Both the position numbers and the translations under genes were made by a program. From Pyrinomonadaceae bacterium (lineage in GTDB: Bacteria; Acidobacteriota; Blastocatellia; Pyrinomonadales; Pyrinomonadaceae), in NCBI GenBank assembly GCA_036279935.1, contig DASURS010000253.1, positions 95 through 64,094 on the forward strand: DNA of 64,000 bases, in the 5' to 3' direction. This document shows positions 5,716 to 50,512 of the stretch, one piece after another. Numbering within the stretch: the stretch's first letter is position 1; the number at the start of each line of letters is the position of its first letter. The notes beneath the pieces were generated by a model. That model did no database searches. It saw only the letters and a program-made list of their open reading frames with translations, and was not told the DNA's origin.

Positions 5716-6657
5716 ATGTTAGCTCTCCGCATCGAGAAGAAACTTTCAGTCAAAGAAATAAAAAAGCCCGACAACCCGGACGAAGCGCTTGTGCGCGTGT
5801 TGCTGTCAGGCATCTGCAACACGGATCTCGAGATTGCTCGCGGATATGCCGGATTCAAGGGAACGATCGGGCACGAGTTTGTCGGCATTGTTGAAAAGGG
5901 AAATCTGAGCGGGCAGCGCGTCGTCGGCGAGATCAACGCCGGTTGCGGCAAGTGCGACCTCTGCCGCGCGGGCGATTCACGACATTGTCCGAATCGCACT
6001 GTGCTGGGAATCGTCGGCAGAGACGGTGCGCACGCCGAGTTTCTTCAACTGCCGGTCGTGAACCTGGTCCCGGTTCCGGAGAACATTCCCGACGAGCACG
6101 CCGCGTTTGCTGAACCGCTCGCGGCTGCCTGCGGCATTCTGGAACGAGTCCCGGTGAGCAAAGACGATCGCGTAGCGGTGATCGGCGACGGCAAACTCGG
6201 TCTGCTCTGCGCGCAAGTCGTCGCACTGAAAGGCGCGACGACGCTTCTCGTCGGCAAACACGAGCCGAAACTCCGGATTGCCGCACGACGCGGCATCGAA
6301 ACGTCGACGCCAAAGGAAGCTGCGAAACGGAAACGGGGATTCGACGTCGTCGTCGAAGCGTCAGGAGCGGCGAGCGGGTTCGACCTCGCGCTCGATCTGC
6401 TTCGTCCGAAGGGCAAATTGGTCCTGAAGTCGACGTTCCATGGCGAGACGAAGGTAAACGCCGCGCGAATCGTCGTCGACGAGATCTCGATCGTCGGATC
6501 GCGCTGCGGACGCTTCGCGCCGGCCATCGATCTCCTCAAGCGAAACGCCATCGACGTCGACAGCCTGATCAGCGAAGAATACGCGCTTTCCGAAGGCGTT
6601 CACGCCATGAAACGAGCGCGTACAAAAGGCGTCCTGAAAGTCTTTCTTCGCCCCTAG
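5716..6657 (+). CDS. zinc-binding alcohol dehydrogenase family (MDR) oxidoreductase
   Basis: GICNTDLEIARGYAGFKGTIGHEFVG catalytic Zn motif, CGKCDLCRAGDSRHC structural Zn motif, and a GDGKLG Rossmann motif. Confidence 0.85.
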   Translation: MLALRIEKKLSVKEIKKPDNPDEALVRVLLSGICNTDLEIARGYAGFKGTIGHEFVGIVEKGNLSGQRVVGEINAGCGKCDLCRAGDSRHCPNRTVLGIVGRDGAHAEFLQLPVVNLVPVPENIPDEHAAFAEPLAAACGILERVPVSKDDRVAVIGDGKLGLLCAQVVALKGATTLLVGKHEPKLRIAARRGIETSTPKEAAKRKRGFDVVVEASGAASGFDLALDLLRPKGKLVLKSTFHGETKVNAARIVVDEISIVGSRCGRFAPAIDLLKRNAIDVDSLISEEYALSEGVHAMKRARTKGVLKVFLRP

Positions 6658-43870: not shown

Positions 43871-46609
43871 ATGCGACACACGAATCGTCTCACACAGTTT
43901 CGTTCGTTTCGTTACTTCTCTTTCGTGCTCGTAATCGGCGTTCTCTTCGCGGCGATCATTGCGGCCGACCGTTCCGACACGACGCACGCTGCTTTTCAAC
44001 CGCAGCCGAACCCGCAAAGACCACAACAATCCGGACTCCCAAACTTCGACGTTCGCCTCGGCGATAAAAAGGAATTCGAAGACTTCAGCCTGACTTCCTT
44101 CCCCGACAGGGCGAGAGCCAGACAGAACCCGCGCGCCAATGCGCGACTCGACGCCGTCGACGAACTTCTCCGGACTGCCGGACCTGATCTCGCGCAAAAC
44201 CTTCACGCCGTCGCGAACGAGTTCGGCGCGATGAAAAACGTCTTCGTCGAGGGCGGCACGTTGTCCGAACCCGCCTCGGACACACCGGACAACATCGCGC
44301 GGAAGTTCCTGAGCGGCCACGCGGATCTCTTCGCCGTGAAAGCTACCGACTCATCCAGTCTCAAGCTGACGAACGAAGACGACGACGATGGAACGGCATT
44401 TCTCGAATACACACAGACTGTGGGTGGAATCAAAGTCTACCAGGGCCACGTGCAGGTGGTCGTAAACAAAAACGGCGAAGTGCTTTCTGTTCGCGAAGGC
44501 TTTCTCGTGGACAAGCAGCCGGTCAGACTTCGGCCTACGCTCAATGAAGCTCGCGGCATCGCGAGGGCCTTCGAACACGCCGGCAAAACTGTCGGAGATT
44601 CATTTGTCGAGACGCACAAGCGAACGTCTTCGACCGAGTTTTCGAAGTTTGTGAACCCGCTGGATGCGAGTCAGCGGGAAGTGCTGTCGGAGTTGAACGT
44701 GGTTCGCGTCGCCGACGCGGCGCGGCTGGCGTGGCACGTTTACGCCCATGTTGGACCAGAGGAGTACTACGAGCTGCTGGTCGATGCTCACACCGGCGAG
44801 TTGCTGCTACGCAATAACCTGATCGTTGACGCGCAGGGCACCGTTTATCCCAAATCGCCCGGCAAGGGAGGCCGCCAACTGGTGTCTTTCCCCGGTTCAT
44901 GGTTAGGCACTTCAGTGGTAACGAACGGTCCTAACGTAGACGCCTGCGTAGACGCGAACGGCGATGGCGCGTGCGATATCACGACTGGAAATTTTTTAGT
45001 GAACGGTCGTGCGTATGCGCCTAACCAGGATTTCGGTTTTCCGTTCTCTCCGGCCGACGATCCTCGACTCTACCCGGCGGCTGTAGTGACGAACCTGTTC
45101 TATTTCATGAACGTGATACACGACTATTCGGCCACCCTGGGCTTTACCACGGGAGCGCGCAACATGGAGGGAAACGATCCGGTAATAGCCCTCGCTCAAA
45201 GTGTTACCGGTAACGCGTTCTTCAACTGTGCGCCGGATGGCGTAAGACCGTCTATCCAAATGGGTTTCTTCAGTGGAGGCGACAGCTCGGTCGATAGCGA
45301 CGTGGCTATTCACGAGTACGGTCACGGCATCGCTATGCGCCTCATCGGCAATTGCGGCGGCCTGAACGGGATCCAATCCGGTGCGATGAACGAAGGCTGG
45401 GCCGATTATTTCGCGGTCACATACGGAGGCGACGGCGCAGTCGGTGAATGGGCGACGAGTGTCAGTGGTGGTTTTCGCCGCGCCGTTTACAGCGTTCCAG
45501 CCGCTTCGATTCACGACTCTTACCAGGACCTGGGCAACCAGGGATTCGAGACACACAACGACGGCGAGATCTGGGCTGCGACGCTTTGGGACTTGCGTGC
45601 GCAGCTTGGCACATCTACGGTGGACCGCCTCGTGGTCCAGGGCATGAAGTTCACGCCGGTAGGGCCGTCATTTCTCAATGCGCGCGACGGCATTCTGAGT
45701 GCCGATCAGAACCTGACCGGCGGCGTCAACCGCTGCTCGATCTGGACGGTGTTCGCTCGTCATGGAATGGGCTTCTCGGCCAGTGGTAACGACGGGACGA
45801 CGCACAACGCAGCGACAGATCTGCCTTCGAGCTGCACGACGCTCCCGCCTATTTATGAAGGCTTCGTTGACGGCGCCGACTGCAATCAGATCTGGGGCTG
45901 GGCATGGGACCAGAACAGACCTAATACCGCTATCAACGTGGACATCTACGCGAACGGAGCGTTTGTAGCGACAGTTGCCGCGAACCTGTTCCGGCAGGAT
46001 TTACTGAATGCCGGCAAGGGCAACGGTTTTCACGCGTTCGTGTTCAACGTTCCTAGTTCGTTGAAGAATGGGCAGTTAAAGACGATAACGGTGCGGTTCG
46101 GAGGAACCAGCACGCAGTTGAGCCTGAGTCCTCGCATTATTGTCTGTAACGCGTCGATGTTCCCGAACGATACTCCGGTAACAAATGCAAGCGGCGGAGG
46201 ATCAACCTGGGAACAGGGCGTAGAGTTCTCCTCTTCTGTCAGCGGCAAAATCGTCGCCATTCGATACTGGAAGGATGCAGCGGAACCGTCCGGCGGGCAC
46301 GTCGGACGAATCTGGTCTTCGAGCGGTAACCTGCTGGCCACGGCGTCGTTCTCCGATCTCACGTCGTCAGGCTGGCAGAAAGCGACTTTATCGACGCCGC
46401 TGTCGATCACTGCCGGAACGAGATACAAGGTCACTTATAACGTCCACAGTGTCGTAGCCAAGACCTTCAACGTGTTCGCCAACGGTCCACTGGACAGGCC
46501 GCCGTTCACGATCTGGGGTTCTTCGTTCTGTTCGCCTGCCGGGTGTTTCCCGACGACCGGCAGCACCAGCAACCTTTTCGCCGACATTGTCTTCAATTCA
46601 CCGCAGTAG
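43871..46609 (+). CDS. secreted M36 (fungalysin-type) metallopeptidase with FTP propeptide and a C-terminal DUF4082-like domain
   Basis: Start set at MRHTNRL...FSFVLVIGVLFAAIIAA (signal anchor). FTP-like segment AFLEYTQTVGGIKVYQGHVQVVVNKNGEVLSV. Zinc site HEYGHGIAMRL...GAMNEGWADYF matches the fungalysin HEYTHG...GEGWSD pattern. C-terminus GVEFSSSVSGKIVAIRYWKDAAEPSGGHVGRIWSSSGNLLATASF...GWQKATL...AGTRYKVTY resembles DUF4082. Confidence 0.85.
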   Translation: MRHTNRLTQFRSFRYFSFVLVIGVLFAAIIAADRSDTTHAAFQPQPNPQRPQQSGLPNFDVRLGDKKEFEDFSLTSFPDRARARQNPRANARLDAVDELLRTAGPDLAQNLHAVANEFGAMKNVFVEGGTLSEPASDTPDNIARKFLSGHADLFAVKATDSSSLKLTNEDDDDGTAFLEYTQTVGGIKVYQGHVQVVVNKNGEVLSVREGFLVDKQPVRLRPTLNEARGIARAFEHAGKTVGDSFVETHKRTSSTEFSKFVNPLDASQREVLSELNVVRVADAARLAWHVYAHVGPEEYYELLVDAHTGELLLRNNLIVDAQGTVYPKSPGKGGRQLVSFPGSWLGTSVVTNGPNVDACVDANGDGACDITTGNFLVNGRAYAPNQDFGFPFSPADDPRLYPAAVVTNLFYFMNVIHDYSATLGFTTGARNMEGNDPVIALAQSVTGNAFFNCAPDGVRPSIQMGFFSGGDSSVDSDVAIHEYGHGIAMRLIGNCGGLNGIQSGAMNEGWADYFAVTYGGDGAVGEWATSVSGGFRRAVYSVPAASIHDSYQDLGNQGFETHNDGEIWAATLWDLRAQLGTSTVDRLVVQGMKFTPVGPSFLNARDGILSADQNLTGGVNRCSIWTVFARHGMGFSASGNDGTTHNAATDLPSSCTTLPPIYEGFVDGADCNQIWGWAWDQNRPNTAINVDIYANGAFVATVAANLFRQDLLNAGKGNGFHAFVFNVPSSLKNGQLKTITVRFGGTSTQLSLSPRIIVCNASMFPNDTPVTNASGGGSTWEQGVEFSSSVSGKIVAIRYWKDAAEPSGGHVGRIWSSSGNLLATASFSDLTSSGWQKATLSTPLSITAGTRYKVTYNVHSVVAKTFNVFANGPLDRPPFTIWGSSFCSPAGCFPTTGSTSNLFADIVFNSPQ

Positions 46610-46645
46610 TTGTTCGTCAGGGAGCAGCGATGCAGTGAATTGGAC

Positions 46646-46682
46646 GCGGGCGGATTTCAAAGGTCCGCCCGCAGTCGTTTTT
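46646..46682 (+). terminator. rho-independent terminator after the protease gene
   Basis: GCGGGCGGA-TTTCAAAGG-TCCGCCCGC stem-loop followed by AGTCGTTTTT. Confidence 0.75.
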
Positions 46683-46697
46683 CAACACGATGAGAGG

Positions 46698-46725
46698 TTG
46701 ACAATCTGCGGGTGCCGACTAGAAT
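46698..46725 (+). promoter_or_regulatory. sigma70 promoter for tRNA-Ser (TTGACA-16-TAGAAT)
   Basis: Perfect -35 TTGACA (46698-46703), 16 nt spacer, TAGAAT (46720-46725). The tRNA 5' end lies about 15 nt downstream of the predicted start site. Confidence 0.7.
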
Positions 46726-46747
46726 TGGTCTTCGCTGAATACGGCAC

Positions 46748-46838
46748 GGAGATGTGGCCGAGTGGCTGAAGGCGGCGGTTTGCTAAACCGTTAAGGGTCA
46801 AAAGCCCTTCACAGGTTCGAATCCTGTCATCTCCGCCA
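46748..46838 (+). tRNA. tRNA-Ser (anticodon GCU), class II with long variable arm, CCA encoded
   Basis: GGAGATG-TG-GCCGAGTGGCTGAAGGC-G-GCGGT-TTGCTAA-ACCGT-TAAGGGTCAAAAGCCCTTC-ACAGG-TTCGAAT-CCTGT-CATCTCC-G-CCA. The cloverleaf was folded by hand and aligns position by position with E. coli tRNA-Ser. Confidence 0.95.
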
Positions 46839-46850
46839 GACTTTTGTGGT

Positions 46851-46915
46851 AAGTAGTTAGTAGCCAGTCCGTCAGTAAACCCGTTACTGAACCCTGACTA
46901 CTGACTACTTTTTTA
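46851..46915 (+). terminator. hairpin with AGTAGTY-word arms plus T-tract (terminator/attenuator between tRNA-Ser and gltX)
   Basis: AAGTAGTTAGTAGCCAGT ... CTGACTACTGACTACTT followed by TTTTTTATT. There is an inner CAGTAA/TTACTG stem. The gltX ATG is 6 nt after the T-tract. Confidence 0.65.
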
Positions 46916-46920
46916 TTGTT

Positions 46921-48414
46921 ATGACTGTTCGCGTTCGCTTCGCTCCATCACCAACCGGCTACCTGCACATCGGCGCCGCTCGTTCGGCACTCTTCAACTG
47001 GCTCTACGCGCGCAAATCAGGCGGCAAGTTCTTACTGCGCATTGAAGACACCGACCTTCAGCGCTCGACCGATGAATCGACGCGCTCGATCATCGAAGGG
47101 CTCGAGTGGCTCGAACTCGACTACGACGAAGATCTCATGTTCCAGTCGGACAAAGGTCCGGAACATCGCGCGGCCGCGGACCGCCTGCTCGCCGAAGGCA
47201 AGGCCTATCGCGACTTCACGCCGAAGGAGCAGCGCGACGACAAGGACGTAAAACAAGACATTCGCGCGCGCGCCAAAGCAAATGAAGTCGAAGGTTTTGA
47301 CGAGCGAAGCAATCCCTATCGCAATCTGTCGAAGGAGGAGTCGGATCGACGCGCAGCAGCGGGCGAGCCGTTTGCGGTGCGTTTGAAAGTACCGGTCGAG
47401 GGCAAGACGAAGTTTGACGACATCGTCTACGGACCGCAGGAACGCAGCCATTCGGAGATCGAAGATCTCGTGTTGCTGCGTTCGGACGGCCATCCGCTTT
47501 ACAACTTGTCCGTCGTGATCGACGACATCGAGATGGGAATCACGCACGTGATTCGCGGACAGGACCATCTCACGAACACGCACAAGCAGATTCTGATTTA
47601 CGAGGCGTTGGGCGCGCCGGTGCCGCGGTTTGCGCACCTGCCGCTGATTCTTGCGCCAAACAAGAGCAAGCTCTCGAAACGAAAGCACGGCGAAGTAGTT
47701 TCGTTGACTACGTATCGCGATCGGGGCTTCATTCCCGCCGCATTTCGCAACTTTCTCGCACTGCTCGGATGGTCGCCGCCGGAAGGCAAAGAGATACTCA
47801 GCAAAGAGGAGCTGGTGCAGTTGTTTGCTCTCGAAGATATCGGACGCGCAAACGCGATCTTCAACTTCCACGAGAACGATCCGCGACGCTGGACTGACGA
47901 CAAAGCCCTCTGGATGAACTCGGAGTACATCCGCACGATGCCGCTCGATGAGTTGCTGCCGATGGTGAAGGCGGAGTTGCGGGCGAACAAACTGTGGCGC
48001 GAGGAGTATGACGACGGCGATCGCGAGTGGTTGTTGAAGACGCTCGACATGATCCGCCAGCGCTTCTTCACGCTGAAAGACTTTTCAAACCAGGGACGGG
48101 CTTATTTCTCCGACGATTTCGACTTCGATGAGACGGCGGTCAACAAAAACCTGCGCAAAGAGCCGCGTCTGCGAGAACTGCTGAATGGACTTGCAGACAA
48201 GCTCGAGGCGGTCGAACCGTTCAACGCGCAGACGGCGGAAGCGGCGTTGCGCTCGTTTGCTGATGAGACGGGAGTTAAGTCGGGGCTGCTGATCAATGGA
48301 TCGCGTACGATGTTGACTGGTCAGGCAGTCGGCCCGTCGATGTTTGAGATCTTCGAAGTGCTCGGCCGCGACCGGTCCGTGCAGCGGTTGAGAAGTGGTA
48401 TTCCTTTCCAGTAA
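46921..48414 (+). CDS. gltX: glutamate--tRNA ligase
   Basis: RVRFAPSPTGYLHIGAARSALFNWLYA (HIGH) and KLSKRK (KMSKS) motifs. 497 aa. Confidence 0.93.
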   Translation: MTVRVRFAPSPTGYLHIGAARSALFNWLYARKSGGKFLLRIEDTDLQRSTDESTRSIIEGLEWLELDYDEDLMFQSDKGPEHRAAADRLLAEGKAYRDFTPKEQRDDKDVKQDIRARAKANEVEGFDERSNPYRNLSKEESDRRAAAGEPFAVRLKVPVEGKTKFDDIVYGPQERSHSEIEDLVLLRSDGHPLYNLSVVIDDIEMGITHVIRGQDHLTNTHKQILIYEALGAPVPRFAHLPLILAPNKSKLSKRKHGEVVSLTTYRDRGFIPAAFRNFLALLGWSPPEGKEILSKEELVQLFALEDIGRANAIFNFHENDPRRWTDDKALWMNSEYIRTMPLDELLPMVKAELRANKLWREEYDDGDREWLLKTLDMIRQRFFTLKDFSNQGRAYFSDDFDFDETAVNKNLRKEPRLRELLNGLADKLEAVEPFNAQTAEAALRSFADETGVKSGLLINGSRTMLTGQAVGPSMFEIFEVLGRDRSVQRLRSGIPFQ

Positions 48415-48424
48415 GGAGAGTTTG

Positions 48425-48970
48425 ATGAAAACAGCAATTCTTTTAGTTTTTGTTTTTGTGTTCGCGGCTCAGGCTCAAACCAAACCCGCGACACCACCGC
48501 CGTCTGACGCGCAGGCGGTGCTCGCCGCGTTCGACAAACTTGTCGCCGGCATCGAGCATGCGAACGTCAACGAAGTGATGAGCGTCTACTGGAACAATCC
48601 CCAGCTCAGCCTTTTCAATTACAACGGCACGGTCACAAAGGGCTGGGAACAGGTGCGCAAGAACCGGGAAAGCTCGTACCCGCAGATCAAGGACACGAAA
48701 CTCGAGGTTCGCGACAAGGCAGTCTACATGCTGGGACGCGACGGCGCGGTCGTAACCTGCCAGTGGACGCAGTCGCAAAACTACAAAGGAACGGCGGAAA
48801 CAGCGACAGGCCGAATGACGCTCGTCTTCAAACGCATCGGCAACGCGTGGAAAGCCATCCACCTGCACTCGTCGCCCGATTCCCCGGATCCGTCACGGGT
48901 TCCTGCTTCCGAACAGCAACCGCCCGCGGCGTCTCCTACGCCTTCACCTACCCCGTCTCCGAAAAATTAG
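48425..48970 (+). CDS. secreted SnoaL/DUF4440-like (NTF2-fold) protein with Pro-rich C-terminal tail
   Basis: Start set at MKTAILLVFVFVFAAQAQ (signal peptide). ...GWEQVRKNRESSY...MTLVFKRIGNAWKAIHLHSS resembles DUF4440. Tail PSPTPSPTPSPKN. Confidence 0.65.
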   Translation: MKTAILLVFVFVFAAQAQTKPATPPPSDAQAVLAAFDKLVAGIEHANVNEVMSVYWNNPQLSLFNYNGTVTKGWEQVRKNRESSYPQIKDTKLEVRDKAVYMLGRDGAVVTCQWTQSQNYKGTAETATGRMTLVFKRIGNAWKAIHLHSSPDSPDPSRVPASEQQPPAASPTPSPTPSPKN

Positions 48971-48977
48971 TGCACTG

Positions 48978-49193
48978 AAAAAGCCGTCCACGATCTGAGA
49001 CCGTGGACGGCTTTCGGTAGACTGTTGGGATTGGCCTGATGGCTACTGTGTGCAACTTCCAGAAAGGAGGAGCACTATGCAGTGAGACGACCGAACCAGA
49101 ATCCTAACAAGTTAGCTGGTTCAGAGGTCAGGCCGCAGCCACCTCACTGTGATAAGAACTCATAAATTTTAGAATCACCTCCTTTCCAGTGTT
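48978..49193 (-). ncRNA. candidate about 215-nt small RNA (or small-ORF transcript) with its own promoter and terminator
   Basis: Bounded by TTGACG-17-TATGAT (49229-49201) and the terminator at 48982-49012. Three nested helices on this strand: GAAAGGAGG/CCTCCTTTC (49178-49186 with 49062-49070), CAGTGAG/CTCACTG (49143-49149 with 49080-49086), GAACCAG/CTGGTTC (49116-49122 with 49093-49099). Lower GC than the surroundings. Contains an 11-codon ORF (MSSYHSEVAAA, 49163-49128). Confidence 0.5.
48982..49012. terminator. bidirectional intrinsic terminator hairpin (11-bp stem); the better T-tract is on the minus strand
   Basis: AGCCGTCCACG-ATCTGAGAC-CGTGGACGGCT. The plus strand continues TTCGG. The minus strand continues TTTTTC. 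Confidence 0.8.
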
Positions 49194-49200
49194 GGCGGAA

Positions 49201-49229
49201 ATCATAAAGTACAACTCAGTGACCGTCAA
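49201..49229 (-). promoter_or_regulatory. sigma70 promoter candidate TTGACG-17-TATGAT, preceded by an A-rich tract
   Basis: Minus strand reads ATAAAAAGCGG-TTGACG-GTCACTGAGTTGTACTT-TATGAT. It starts 15 nt downstream of the hutI stop. Confidence 0.6.
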
Positions 49230-49243
49230 CCGCTTTTTATAAT

Positions 49244-50512
49244 TCACCTTTCGAATACAAGTTTGCCTGAGCAGTAGACTCGACTCGCGTGTTCGAGCCC
49301 GAAGAAGTAAGCGAGATCGCGATAATCACCGCGGTCGTGAATGACGACGTCCGCGATCTTACCCGGTTCGATTGAGCCGAGCTGCGCGCCGCGATTCAAA
49401 CTGTAAGCGGCGTTGATCGTTGCGGCGGTGATTGCTTCCGCCGGCGTCATCTTCATGTGCGTGGCGGCGAGCGAGAGGATCATCGGCATCGAGGGCGTCG
49501 GCGATGAACCGGGATTGAAGTCGGTCGCGAGCACGACCGCCAAACCGGCGTCGATCATCTCACGCGCGGCGGGATAACGAGAGGATCCGATCGCGTAAAC
49601 GGATCCCGGAAGGAGTACTGGTTGCACGCCCGCAGTCTTCAACGCGGCGATCCCGTCTGCGTCAGTGTGTTCGAGATGATCGGCCGTGATTGTGCCGAGT
49701 TCCGCAGCTAATTGTGCGCCGCCGGATAAGGAAAGCTGATCGGCGTGAATCCGCAACTTCAGTCCATGGCGTCGCGCGGCTGAAAGTATTTCTCGCGTCT
49801 CGTCAATTGTGAATACTTTCTGTTCGCAGAACACATCGCAAAACTCCGCCAGCTTCTCATTCGCTACGGCCGGCAACATCTCTTCGATAATCAACGACAC
49901 ATATTGATCGCGTCGCGAACTGTATTCCGGCGGAACGCTATGGGCTCCGAGAAAGGTGGGTATGTAACGTAGAGGTGTTCCGTCGCCGAGTCGCTTGATG
50001 ACGCGGAGGATTTTGACTTCATCTTCGAGCGACAATCCGTAACCGGATTTTGCTTCGATGGTCGTCGTGCCTGAGCGGAGAAACCAACCCGTGTAAGTCC
50101 CCGATTCCTGAAGCAACACGTCGTCATGCACGGCCCGAGTTGCATTGACTGTAGATTGAATCCCGCCGCCACGTGCCGCGATCTCTGCGTACGTCGCTCC
50201 TTTGCTGCGCTCTTCAAATTCCTCAACACGCGTACCGGAGAAGACGGGATGTGTGTGTGCATCGACAAACCCAGGCATAACCACTCGGCCCGTTGCGTTG
50301 ACGACTTCGCAATCCGAATTGATCAACGGTTCGATTTGATCTGTGGTTCCGACTACCTCGATCAACCCATTGCGAATGAGGATCGCGCCGCGGTTGATAA
50401 TTCCAAGCTCGCGCATCTCCGGACCAACCCGCGGGCGTGCCGGTCCGGCCAGCGTTAGCAGTTGCAAACAGTCAACGATGGCAAGTGCTTTACTTTCGTT
50501 TTCCGAGGACAT
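49244..50512 (-). CDS. hutI: imidazolonepropionase
   Basis: [45 protein letters not shown]...TADHLEH and [10 protein letters not shown] match HutI signatures. Start set at MSSENES (ATG 50512); the track start is 50554. Confidence 0.88.

Follow-up and report, generated by a model that had tools for sequence, protein, structure and literature searches.

The minus strand of a 64,000-nucleotide (nt) stretch of contig DASURS010000253.1 from a Pyrinomonadaceae bacterium (the window, 64 kb in total) carries, between the convergent genes hutI (imidazolonepropionase) and a SnoaL-like gene, a small element that can be assigned with high confidence as a divergent acidobacterial relative of the Ms_IGR-5 family of small RNAs (sRNAs; Rfam RF02471), with the conserved fold and the conserved reading frame of that family. 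All coordinates of the element given below refer to the minus strand. A sigma-70-type promoter (49229-49201) begins 15 nt past the hutI stop codon (49246-49244) and consists of a -35 box TTGACG (49229-49224), a 17-nt spacer and a -10 box TATGAT (49206-49201). It matches the consensus at 10 of 12 positions, and no other promoter-like site was found in 48300-49800. Transcription is likely to start at A49193 or A49192, about 7 nt past the -10 box, at a 5' (A)ACAC that is family-wide. From there the predicted transcript of about 215 nt (48978-49193) runs to the U run of an intrinsic terminator (48978-49014), in which a GC-rich hairpin with a stem of 17 base pairs (49014-48983) is followed by T5 (48982-48978). 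The terminator adjoins the SnoaL-like gene, 8 nt beyond the stop of that gene (end at 48970), and its position is kept in relatives; a simple terminator scanner did not detect it, as the T run is partly contained in the stem. The 221 nt from 49195 to 48975 fold with an energy of -86.3 kcal/mol (z = -5.08), and none of 200 shuffles folded as well.

Downstream of the start lies an extended Shine-Dalgarno (SD) sequence, GGAAAGGAGGTGAT (RNA: GGAAAGGAGGUGAU; 49187-49174). Its 13-mer GAAAGGAGGTGAT is perfectly complementary to the conserved 3' end of bacterial 16S rRNA and is found once in the 64-kb window, where 0.03 occurrences are expected. It is followed by a micro open reading frame (micro-ORF) of 11 codons plus stop (49163-49128), with ATG at 49163-49161 and TGA at 49130-49128, which encodes MSSYHSEVAAA with the codons ATG AGT TCT TAT CAC AGT GAG GTG GCT GCG GCC TGA. 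An internal SD-like GAGGUG (49145-49140) is positioned 9 nt upstream of the stop, that is, 6 nt upstream of the last sense codon. The promoter, the SD, the micro-ORF, the complementary segments and the terminator proposed by a first-pass annotation of this DNA were all found where it had placed them. Its description of a GC-poor region that no protein-coding gene explains also holds, given that the GC fraction is 0.45-0.51 against 0.56-0.62 in the flanks and that no longer ORF accounts for the region, with the sole exception of a mechanical extension of 39 amino acids. This 39-residue ORF (49128-49247) was rejected as a candidate, since it merely prolongs the micro-ORF frame upstream, across the SD and the promoter; it begins at a GTG that overlaps the hutI stop and would be relevant solely to hutI read-through transcripts.

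The scan of the window at the Rfam gathering thresholds returned a tRNA alone. A sensitive scan of 48850-49350 (501 nt, E <= 10) matched RF02471 at 48978-49192 with 29.8 bits and E = 4.7e-5, over the full model positions 1-184. All three conserved blocks of the model are aligned in order and with high posterior probability, and are followed by the terminator. The Rfam comparison proposed by the first-pass annotation led to a known family, an outcome that it had named as a refutation of its proposal, at a score below threshold, so that this clause is borne out by half. Ms_IGR-5 is an actinobacterial sRNA that was reportedly first found in Mycobacterium smegmatis. In common with it, the window element has the 5' ACAC, GGAAGGAGGUG, a start-codon hairpin, GUGAGGUGGCUGC, a variable domain, AAUYCC...CAGUCACC and a terminator, with the third block reading AAUCC..CAGUC in the window; it also has its own promoter and a micro-ORF whose stop lies five codons after GAG. 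Of the traits of the family, the window element has the block order from end to end, can form the helices P1, P2a and P2b described below and has the reading frame. The actinobacterial host is not shared: the closest hutI homologues and the element-bearing contigs are from Pyrinomonadaceae, Blastocatellia or Acidobacteriota metagenome-assembled genomes (MAGs). The window differs further from the model in its variable domain, which has 88 nt rather than 35 and adds an anti-SD arm and a UUGUUAGGAUU loop, in having 11 codons instead of 12, in the shifted register of its start-codon hairpin HP1 (GUGAU:AUCAC), in a one-base bulge in P2a, in the U tail of its terminator and in belonging to Acidobacteriota and not to Actinomycetota. 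Because it fails the curated score, belongs to another phylum and has an additional module, it is not a strict member of RF02471. The scores of the relatives (loci numbered with L) are graded, with 62-185 bits in Actinobacteria, 55.9 in the zixibacterial L090, 53-60 in a metagenome subfamily and 30-39 in the others, with intermediate members at 35-39, and the close relatives L005, L059 and L068 are likewise under the cut-off. For this reason the window element is placed at the far end of a continuous family. In L010 (Nocardioides eburneus) the variable domain is much enlarged and the score falls under the gathering cut-off, so that the Rfam model misses some members even within Actinomycetota.

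Relatives were collected with two pattern scans. The genome collection was scanned with AAGGAGGTG-N20-40-GTGAGGTGNCNNC, which gave at least 120 loci and about 117 true members among the matches listed, and metagenomes were scanned with the 5' 21 nt alone (ACACNNGRAAGGAGGTGRTCC), which gave at least 120 loci. As the latter is anchored on the 5' end alone, it puts no bias on the 3' part of the ORF. Together the scans yielded more than 200 relatives, in which AAGGAGGTG is invariant, though it was forced by both patterns. The genome matches listed are mostly Actinomycetota (Mycobacterium, Streptomyces, Kitasatospora, Nocardioides, Rhodococcus and others), with 10 MAGs of Blastocatellia, Pyrinomonadaceae or Acidobacteriota, two Nitrospirota members, and single members from Zixibacteria, from Ignavibacteriales, from a 'delta proteobacterium' and from a 'Heliobacteriaceae' MAG. 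Block 3 was located by nhmmer at the same position as in the window in the 100 of 124 members where it was found.

The first-pass annotation had considered that the transcript might arise as a hutI 3' untranslated region. In its strict form this would make the element a functionless 3' end of hutI, or a bidirectional terminator shared by the convergent genes, and it would agree with the facts that in Pyrinomonadaceae-type contigs the element always follows hutI and that the terminator abuts the end of the SnoaL-like gene. It is a very improbable explanation, given that the element has its own near-consensus promoter and that the same RNA is found in unrelated contexts in other clades. Indeed, relatives of every clade have a -35/-10 pair (TAnnnT in Actinomycetota) at a constant distance upstream of ACAC. 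In syntenic contigs, picked through hutI homologues with about 80-94% amino acid identity, the element lies directly downstream of hutI, and the stretch from the promoter to the inner hairpin is almost invariant, exceeding the conservation of the flanking protein genes; at an identity of about 80% in hutI, the 5' half of the element still hardly varies. In L004 the promoter is intact despite about 290 nt of repeat-rich DNA after hutI. Clustering of 557 flanking ORFs from about 120 loci gave no family present at more than 25 loci, and each clade has its own set, with hutI in Pyrinomonadaceae and, in mycobacteria, genes that by eye are presumably of pabC type and nitrobindin type. An origin solely from hutI is not supported. 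The other proposal of the first-pass annotation, of an independent small-RNA gene, agrees with the promoter and terminator of its own, the fixed distance between promoter and ACAC and the flanking genes that change with the clade. Judged by these signals, the locus is an independently transcribed small-RNA gene with a predicted transcript.

The fold shared by the family was examined in an alignment of the conserved parts of 72 sequences (A1), from which the helix counts below are taken, while counts for close relatives come from 17 Blastocatellia-type sequences. In A1, 78% of the cells are paired overall, against 22-50% when the partners are slid, and the covariation score is 0.21 versus 0.14, a level reached by none of 500 shuffles. 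In helix P1, the 5' strand CACU (49191-49188) pairs with AGUG (49148-49145). Its family form, CAC-N : N-GUG with the strands about 45 nt apart, is paired in 96.7% of the cells over the 72 sequences, and the fourth pair varies as GC (30), UA (13) and AU (9), with C-G also found in metagenome members, while it is invariant among the closest relatives. Hairpin HP1 (49178-49149) is closed by GUGAU (49178-49174) pairing with AUCAC (49153-49149) and holds the start codon in its loop; it is paired in 100% of the 17 close relatives, and its actinobacterial equivalent GRUCCnn:nnGGAY covaries. The SD core is single-stranded in this fold, between P1 and HP1.

Helix P2a is formed by GGUGGCUG (49143-49136), from the Glu-Val-Ala-Ala codons, and by CAGUCUACC (49024-49016), with one bulged U. 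Its family pairing GGUGGCUGC:GCAGUCACC is 92% paired, and compensated variants are numerous: GGUGAUUGU:GCAAUCRCC, GGUGGUUGU:GCAACCACC, GGUGGCUGU:ACAGCCACC, GGUGGCGGG:UCCGUCACC, GGUGGCUAC:GUAGCCACC, CUAC:GUAG and, in L036, CCACC:GGUGG. In P2b, GGCCUGA (49134-49128), which is the last sense codon with the stop codon, pairs with UCAGGCC (49039-49033), and the pair covaries among GC, CG, AU and UA in A1 and as GC (11) and AU (5) in the close relatives. The bulge AAUCCCAA (49032-49025; consensus AAUYCC), unpaired and conserved, separates the 3' strand of P2b from that of P2a, and these three segments, UCAGGCC, the bulge and CAGUCUACC, constitute block 3 (49039-49016). RNAalifold on the 17 Blastocatellia-type sequences recovered P1, P2a, P2b and an inner hairpin independently, and the unconstrained minimum free energy (MFE) structure of the window includes P2a and P2b. 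The inner hairpin belongs to the variable domain (49124-49091; CUGAACCAG ... CUGGUUCGG, with the conserved loop UUGUUAGGAUU). Its basal pairs covary (AU 10 and GC 7; UA 8, AU 5 and UG 3), and its distal CAG:CUG pairs are not conserved.

In Blastocatellia-type members, few parts of the variable domain are as conserved as the loop UUGUUAGGAUU (49111-49101). It contains GGAUU, the complement of AAUCC in the bulge at 49032-49025; L005 has changes on both sides (GGU, ACC), and many mycobacteria have GGAAU versus AUUCC. A tertiary pairing between bulge and loop was considered and rejected, as 47 of 96 members lack it and it exceeds shuffles only slightly (2.27 versus 1.56), and for these reasons it is not a feature of the family.

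The first-pass annotation had proposed a different fold, a rod of three nested helices that sequesters the SD. Its segments and their complementarity are present: GAAAGGAGG (49186-49178) with CCTCCTTTC (49070-49062), CAGTGAG (49149-49143) with CTCACTG (49086-49080), and GAACCAG (49122-49116) with CTGGTTC (49099-49093). As the fold of the family it does not stand, given that the conserved fold is different and that the arm it needs is found only in Blastocatellia-type members. When the three helices are forced, the energy is -81.0 kcal/mol, which is 5.3 kcal/mol above the MFE of -86.3, and the rod and the family fold are topologically exclusive. The anti-SD arm CUCCUCCUUUCUGG (49072-49059), which can pair with the 5' CUGGAAAGGAGG, is a clade-specific insertion in the variable domain, with a core that repeats the 16S 3' tail exactly. 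Of the 14 Pyrinomonadaceae-type genome members, 10 have the anti-SD tract (GUGCUCCUCCUUUC/U), five related metagenome members have CCUUCUUUCC instead, and among the relatives the arm is absent in L005/L006, L068, L111, L059 and all other phyla. Against CUGGAAAGGAGG, 92% of the cells pair, compared with 39-51% when slid, through one-sided changes alone. The second segment, CUCACUG (49086-49080), partner of CAGUGAG, is paired in 89% of the 17 close relatives, again with one-sided changes, and is absent outside the clade; among the rod helices, only the base of the innermost hairpin has two-sided covariation. Because the complementarity is kept where the arm is present, the rod looks like a Blastocatellia-specific alternative conformation that would mask the SD, and not like the ancestral or family fold. 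A hairpin that would present the anti-SD was considered and set aside; the inverted repeats flanking the anti-SD (GUGC..GCAC and GUGAC..GUCAC) are visible by eye alone, in a part where a further alignment, A2, is inconsistent.

The rod-like shape of this alternative fold had also evoked RNAs of the 6S type, which bind RNA polymerase, and a peptide ending in AAA may recall transfer-messenger RNA (tmRNA). Such an identity is effectively refuted: there is no Rfam match to 6S or tmRNA at E <= 10 in 48850-49350, ARAGORN yields only a tRNA-Ser in 46000-50000 and no tRNA-like domain is present, the C-terminal residues vary, and the conserved fold is multi-helical, without the rod and central bubble of 6S RNA.

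The micro-ORF noted in the first pass proved to be conserved in 222 of 222 relatives among the matches listed. In 121 of 121 genome members and in 101 of 101 evaluable members of the 5'-anchored metagenome scan, the SD is followed by an in-frame start and the stop falls exactly five codons past GAG, and both sets share the block GUGAGGUG together with this stop. The start is ATG, TTG or GTG, 7-14 nt after GGAGG and in frame with GAG-GTG; the stop is TAG, TGA or TAA and never a sense codon; and the length is 11-21 codons. One-base length changes sit in the spacer between SD and start, while changes within the ORF are multiples of three. In the scan that did not force it, GAG GTG is invariant save for one GTA in 101 (L154), and the spacing from GAGGUG to the stop is invariant in the family members of both scans. 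Before Glu the peptide has R, C, S or G, encoded by NGU, and the first base of this codon changes along with its P1 partner at the 5' end; after Glu-Val come A/T/I/V, then A/V/E/G/T, then almost any residue. The NGU codon is thus set by P1 pairing, and Glu-Val-x-x is the strand of P2a. Read in this way, the peptide is largely a by-product of the RNA structure, while its translation signals are not.

This bears on the possibility that the locus is a tiny protein gene, in which the 11-residue peptide with its conserved C-terminal E-V-A/T-A-x would be the product and the RNA structure would merely stabilise the message. The perfect conservation of start, frame and stop, the invariant E-V with its one synonymous change from GTG to GTA, and the ribosome footprints on homologues are what such a gene would give. 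The residues outside E-V, on the other hand, vary radically (R/C/S/G, W/R/H/G, A/T/I/V then A/V/E/G/T) over lengths of 11-21 amino acids, and their changes follow the covariation of base pairs; GAG and GTG are almost never replaced by synonymous codons, low-GC phyla included; the ORF does not reach the conserved 3' block or the bulge; and the locus has no linked genes for modification or for partners. An explanation by the peptide is thus improbable, and the conserved non-coding blocks and fold would agree with a regulatory activity of the RNA apart from coding.

The reverse view, of a conventional base-pairing sRNA whose C/U-rich anti-SD loop or GCAGUCACC would act as seed on the ribosome-binding sites of mRNAs, with an incidental and untranslated ORF, has in its favour the structured transcript with terminator and a pyrimidine-rich arm typical of seeds. 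The discovery paper, going by its title, is also said to have found the family through co-purification with heterologous Hfq. It is nonetheless a decidedly improbable account, since the stop varies among TAG, TGA and TAA and is never a sense codon, though TGG would pair equally well, since indels in the ORF are solely multiples of three while the spacer between SD and start takes single-base changes, and since the homologues have ribosome footprints and the pyrimidine arm is specific to one clade. Ribosome profiling (Ribo-seq) footprints have been obtained on the Ms_IGR-5 homologues of M. abscessus and M. smegmatis (PMC4974804), and, given the conservation at codon level, the micro-ORF is probably translated. 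In Streptomyces avermitilis the homologue is a discrete sRNA transcription unit with mapped ends (PMC8780764), and that of S. lividans was validated by RNA-seq (PMC8079986).

Overall, these observations are best explained, by a modest preponderance, if the window carries a divergent member of the Ms_IGR-5 family that works as a ribosome-operated RNA switch. The exposed and strong SD would load a ribosome, which would translate the micro-ORF. The ORF covers exactly HP1, the 3' strand of P1 and the 5' strands of both P2 helices, so that a ribosome at the stop would have melted the whole core and little else, and the unwinding would free the conserved 3' segment, made of the 3' strand of P2b, AAUYCC and GCAGUCACC. 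When the stop codon occupies the A site, GAGGUG would lie 6 nt upstream of the P-site codon, a spacing like that of initiation, and could re-engage the anti-SD of the ribosome. Translation would in this manner toggle the 3' segment between masked and exposed states, and the toggle would couple a binding partner of this segment, or the stability of the RNA, to ribosome availability. In Blastocatellia, the inserted pyrimidine arm CUCCUCCUUUCUGG and CUCACUG would give a second, SD-masking conformation as a gate on ribosome loading.

Part of the same evidence would suit a ribosome or 30S decoy or parking RNA, in which GGAGGUGAU and GAGGUG bracket the micro-ORF and buffer free subunits or shield the 16S 3' tail. 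The extreme SD complementarity of 13-15 nt, the SD left unpaired by the conserved fold, GAGGUG fixed 9 nt from the stop and the near-consensus promoter in every clade could all be read in this sense. However, a decoy would hold one or two ribosomes per RNA and would need a very high abundance, it leaves the conservation of the AAUYCC bulge and the covariation of P2 unexplained, and the SD-masking arm of the window's clade would be odd in a constitutive decoy. For these reasons a decoy appears unlikely.

Several points weigh against a ribosome-operated switch in an Ms_IGR-5 relative. The score of the window, 29.8 bits, fails the curated RF02471 cut-off of 45 bits. The SD was forced by both scan patterns and GTGAGGTG by one, so that the invariance of the SD and GTGAGGTG is partly built in. 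The published evidence for expression and ribosome occupancy comes from mycobacterial and Streptomyces homologues, and the neighbouring genes offer no hint of function. The literature found on Ms_IGR-5 and CC2171 describes expressed sRNAs with function unassigned, and in it no target, partner or phenotype is given for any member of the family; searches for peptide tails, RNA motifs and plausible M. tuberculosis sRNA names returned nothing relevant. The anti-SD helix is open to no two-sided covariation test, because its 5' strand never varies. The invariance of GAGGUG could stem from coding and pairing constraints jointly, and not from anti-SD recognition. Lastly, the switching mechanism itself is drawn from geometry and is put forward tentatively, at less than even odds.

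Taken further, the whole family might be an ancient ribosome-operated device, present in at least five or six phyla, that senses or buffers the status of free ribosomes or translation. This view is speculative and on balance unlikely. It would describe a constitutive sRNA with a maximal SD and an ORF whose length is cut for one ribosome to melt the core; the ribosome would be re-captured at the stop by GAGGUG, the output would pass through the exposed AAUYCC/GCAGUCACC segment, and in Blastocatellia a part of the RNA that mimics the 16S tail would gate the SD in addition.

What the relatives bring is that the Ms_IGR-5 design extends past Actinobacteria, into Acidobacteriota, Nitrospirota, Zixibacteria, Ignavibacteriales and other lineages. 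The trait that unifies them is that start, frame and stop never fail while the codons double as strands of the core helices, and an sRNA now annotated as non-coding is probably translated. The micro-ORF as a family trait, the fixed GAGGUG spacing and the multi-phylum range were in no paper found, within an incomplete access to the literature. The hypothesis of ribosome-driven switching can be tested in M. smegmatis, Streptomyces and similar tractable hosts, and the window locus itself is one more, unusually decorated, copy of the family.

Some features lie around these loci. In the window, a tRNA-Ser(GCU) (46748-46838), a glutamyl-tRNA synthetase gene (46921-48414) and the SnoaL/DUF4440-like gene (48395-48970) follow one another; the last overlaps the 3' end of the synthetase gene by 20 nt and converges on the terminator of the element. 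Read on the plus strand, the terminator hairpin has just three T after it. MicroRNA-like Rfam matches in the window cover the terminator hairpin alone and were dismissed. In L127 (5337-5419), a related metagenome contig, a hairpin of about 80 nt lies about 1.4 kb upstream of the element and reaches 38-43 bits with several models of microRNA precursors; this is probably nothing more than a long, perfect bacterial hairpin. The DNA between hutI and the element promoter in L004 (4264-4540), about 290 nt, is dense in GC-rich palindromes (GCCTGCGAAGCAGGC, GCCCGCGAAGCGGGC, CCTGGGGCGCAAGCCCCAGG) that look like REP-type (repetitive extragenic palindromic) repeats; this insertion is absent from the window. 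The mycobacterial metagenome contig L147 has two same-strand copies (374-410 and 6449-6485) of the first 37 nt or so of the element alone, each with promoter-like sequence upstream and both broken off at one and the same base (..GATAGCT). Between them lie about 6 kb with genes for a sulfotransferase and a PE-PGRS protein, and the same truncation is found in L216. These truncations may reflect the use of the sRNA gene as an insertion or recombination site.

Among known systems, CC2171 (RF01867) is an alphaproteobacterial sRNA validated by Northern blotting in Caulobacter and Methylorubrum. Similar to the window element are its 5' end, cAAcA, the next 15 nt, which are perfectly complementary to the 16S tail (GAAAGGAGGUGAUCC), and its nature as an independent sRNA whose variable domain is closed by a long-range helix directly upstream of the terminator. 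Its consensus, in contrast, has no visible GUGAGGUG block or AAUYCC bulge. The match of the window to RF01867 has 18.0 bits against a cut-off of 75 and covers the 5' SD region and the terminator alone, with two relatives at 27-28 bits, and judged by sequence CC2171 is not demonstrably related. By analogy, the window element may be likened to the dual-function sRNAs SgrS/SgrT, RNAIII/hld, SR1/SR1P and AzuCR, which are also small, structured and terminator-ended and carry a short ORF. Those ORFs encode peptides of 26-43 amino acids that have their own function and lie largely apart from the base-pairing region, whereas in the family the ORF of 11-21 codons forms strands of the core helices and its residues mostly follow the RNA pairing. 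The family would resemble the leader-peptide attenuators (trpL, pheL, ermCL) in that a ribosome on a micro-ORF would remodel the downstream pairing between mutually exclusive helices. It differs from them in that no downstream gene is present, the terminator lies far past the ORF and is always there, and the ORF has no run of codons for a single regulatory amino acid. A functional parallel to the GAGGUG element is the frameshift site of prfB (release factor RF2), where an SD-like hexamer also stands at a fixed short distance before an in-frame stop. In prfB this distance is 6 nt, while in the family it is 9 nt, a spacing that is initiation-like and not strained, and all three stop codons are used.

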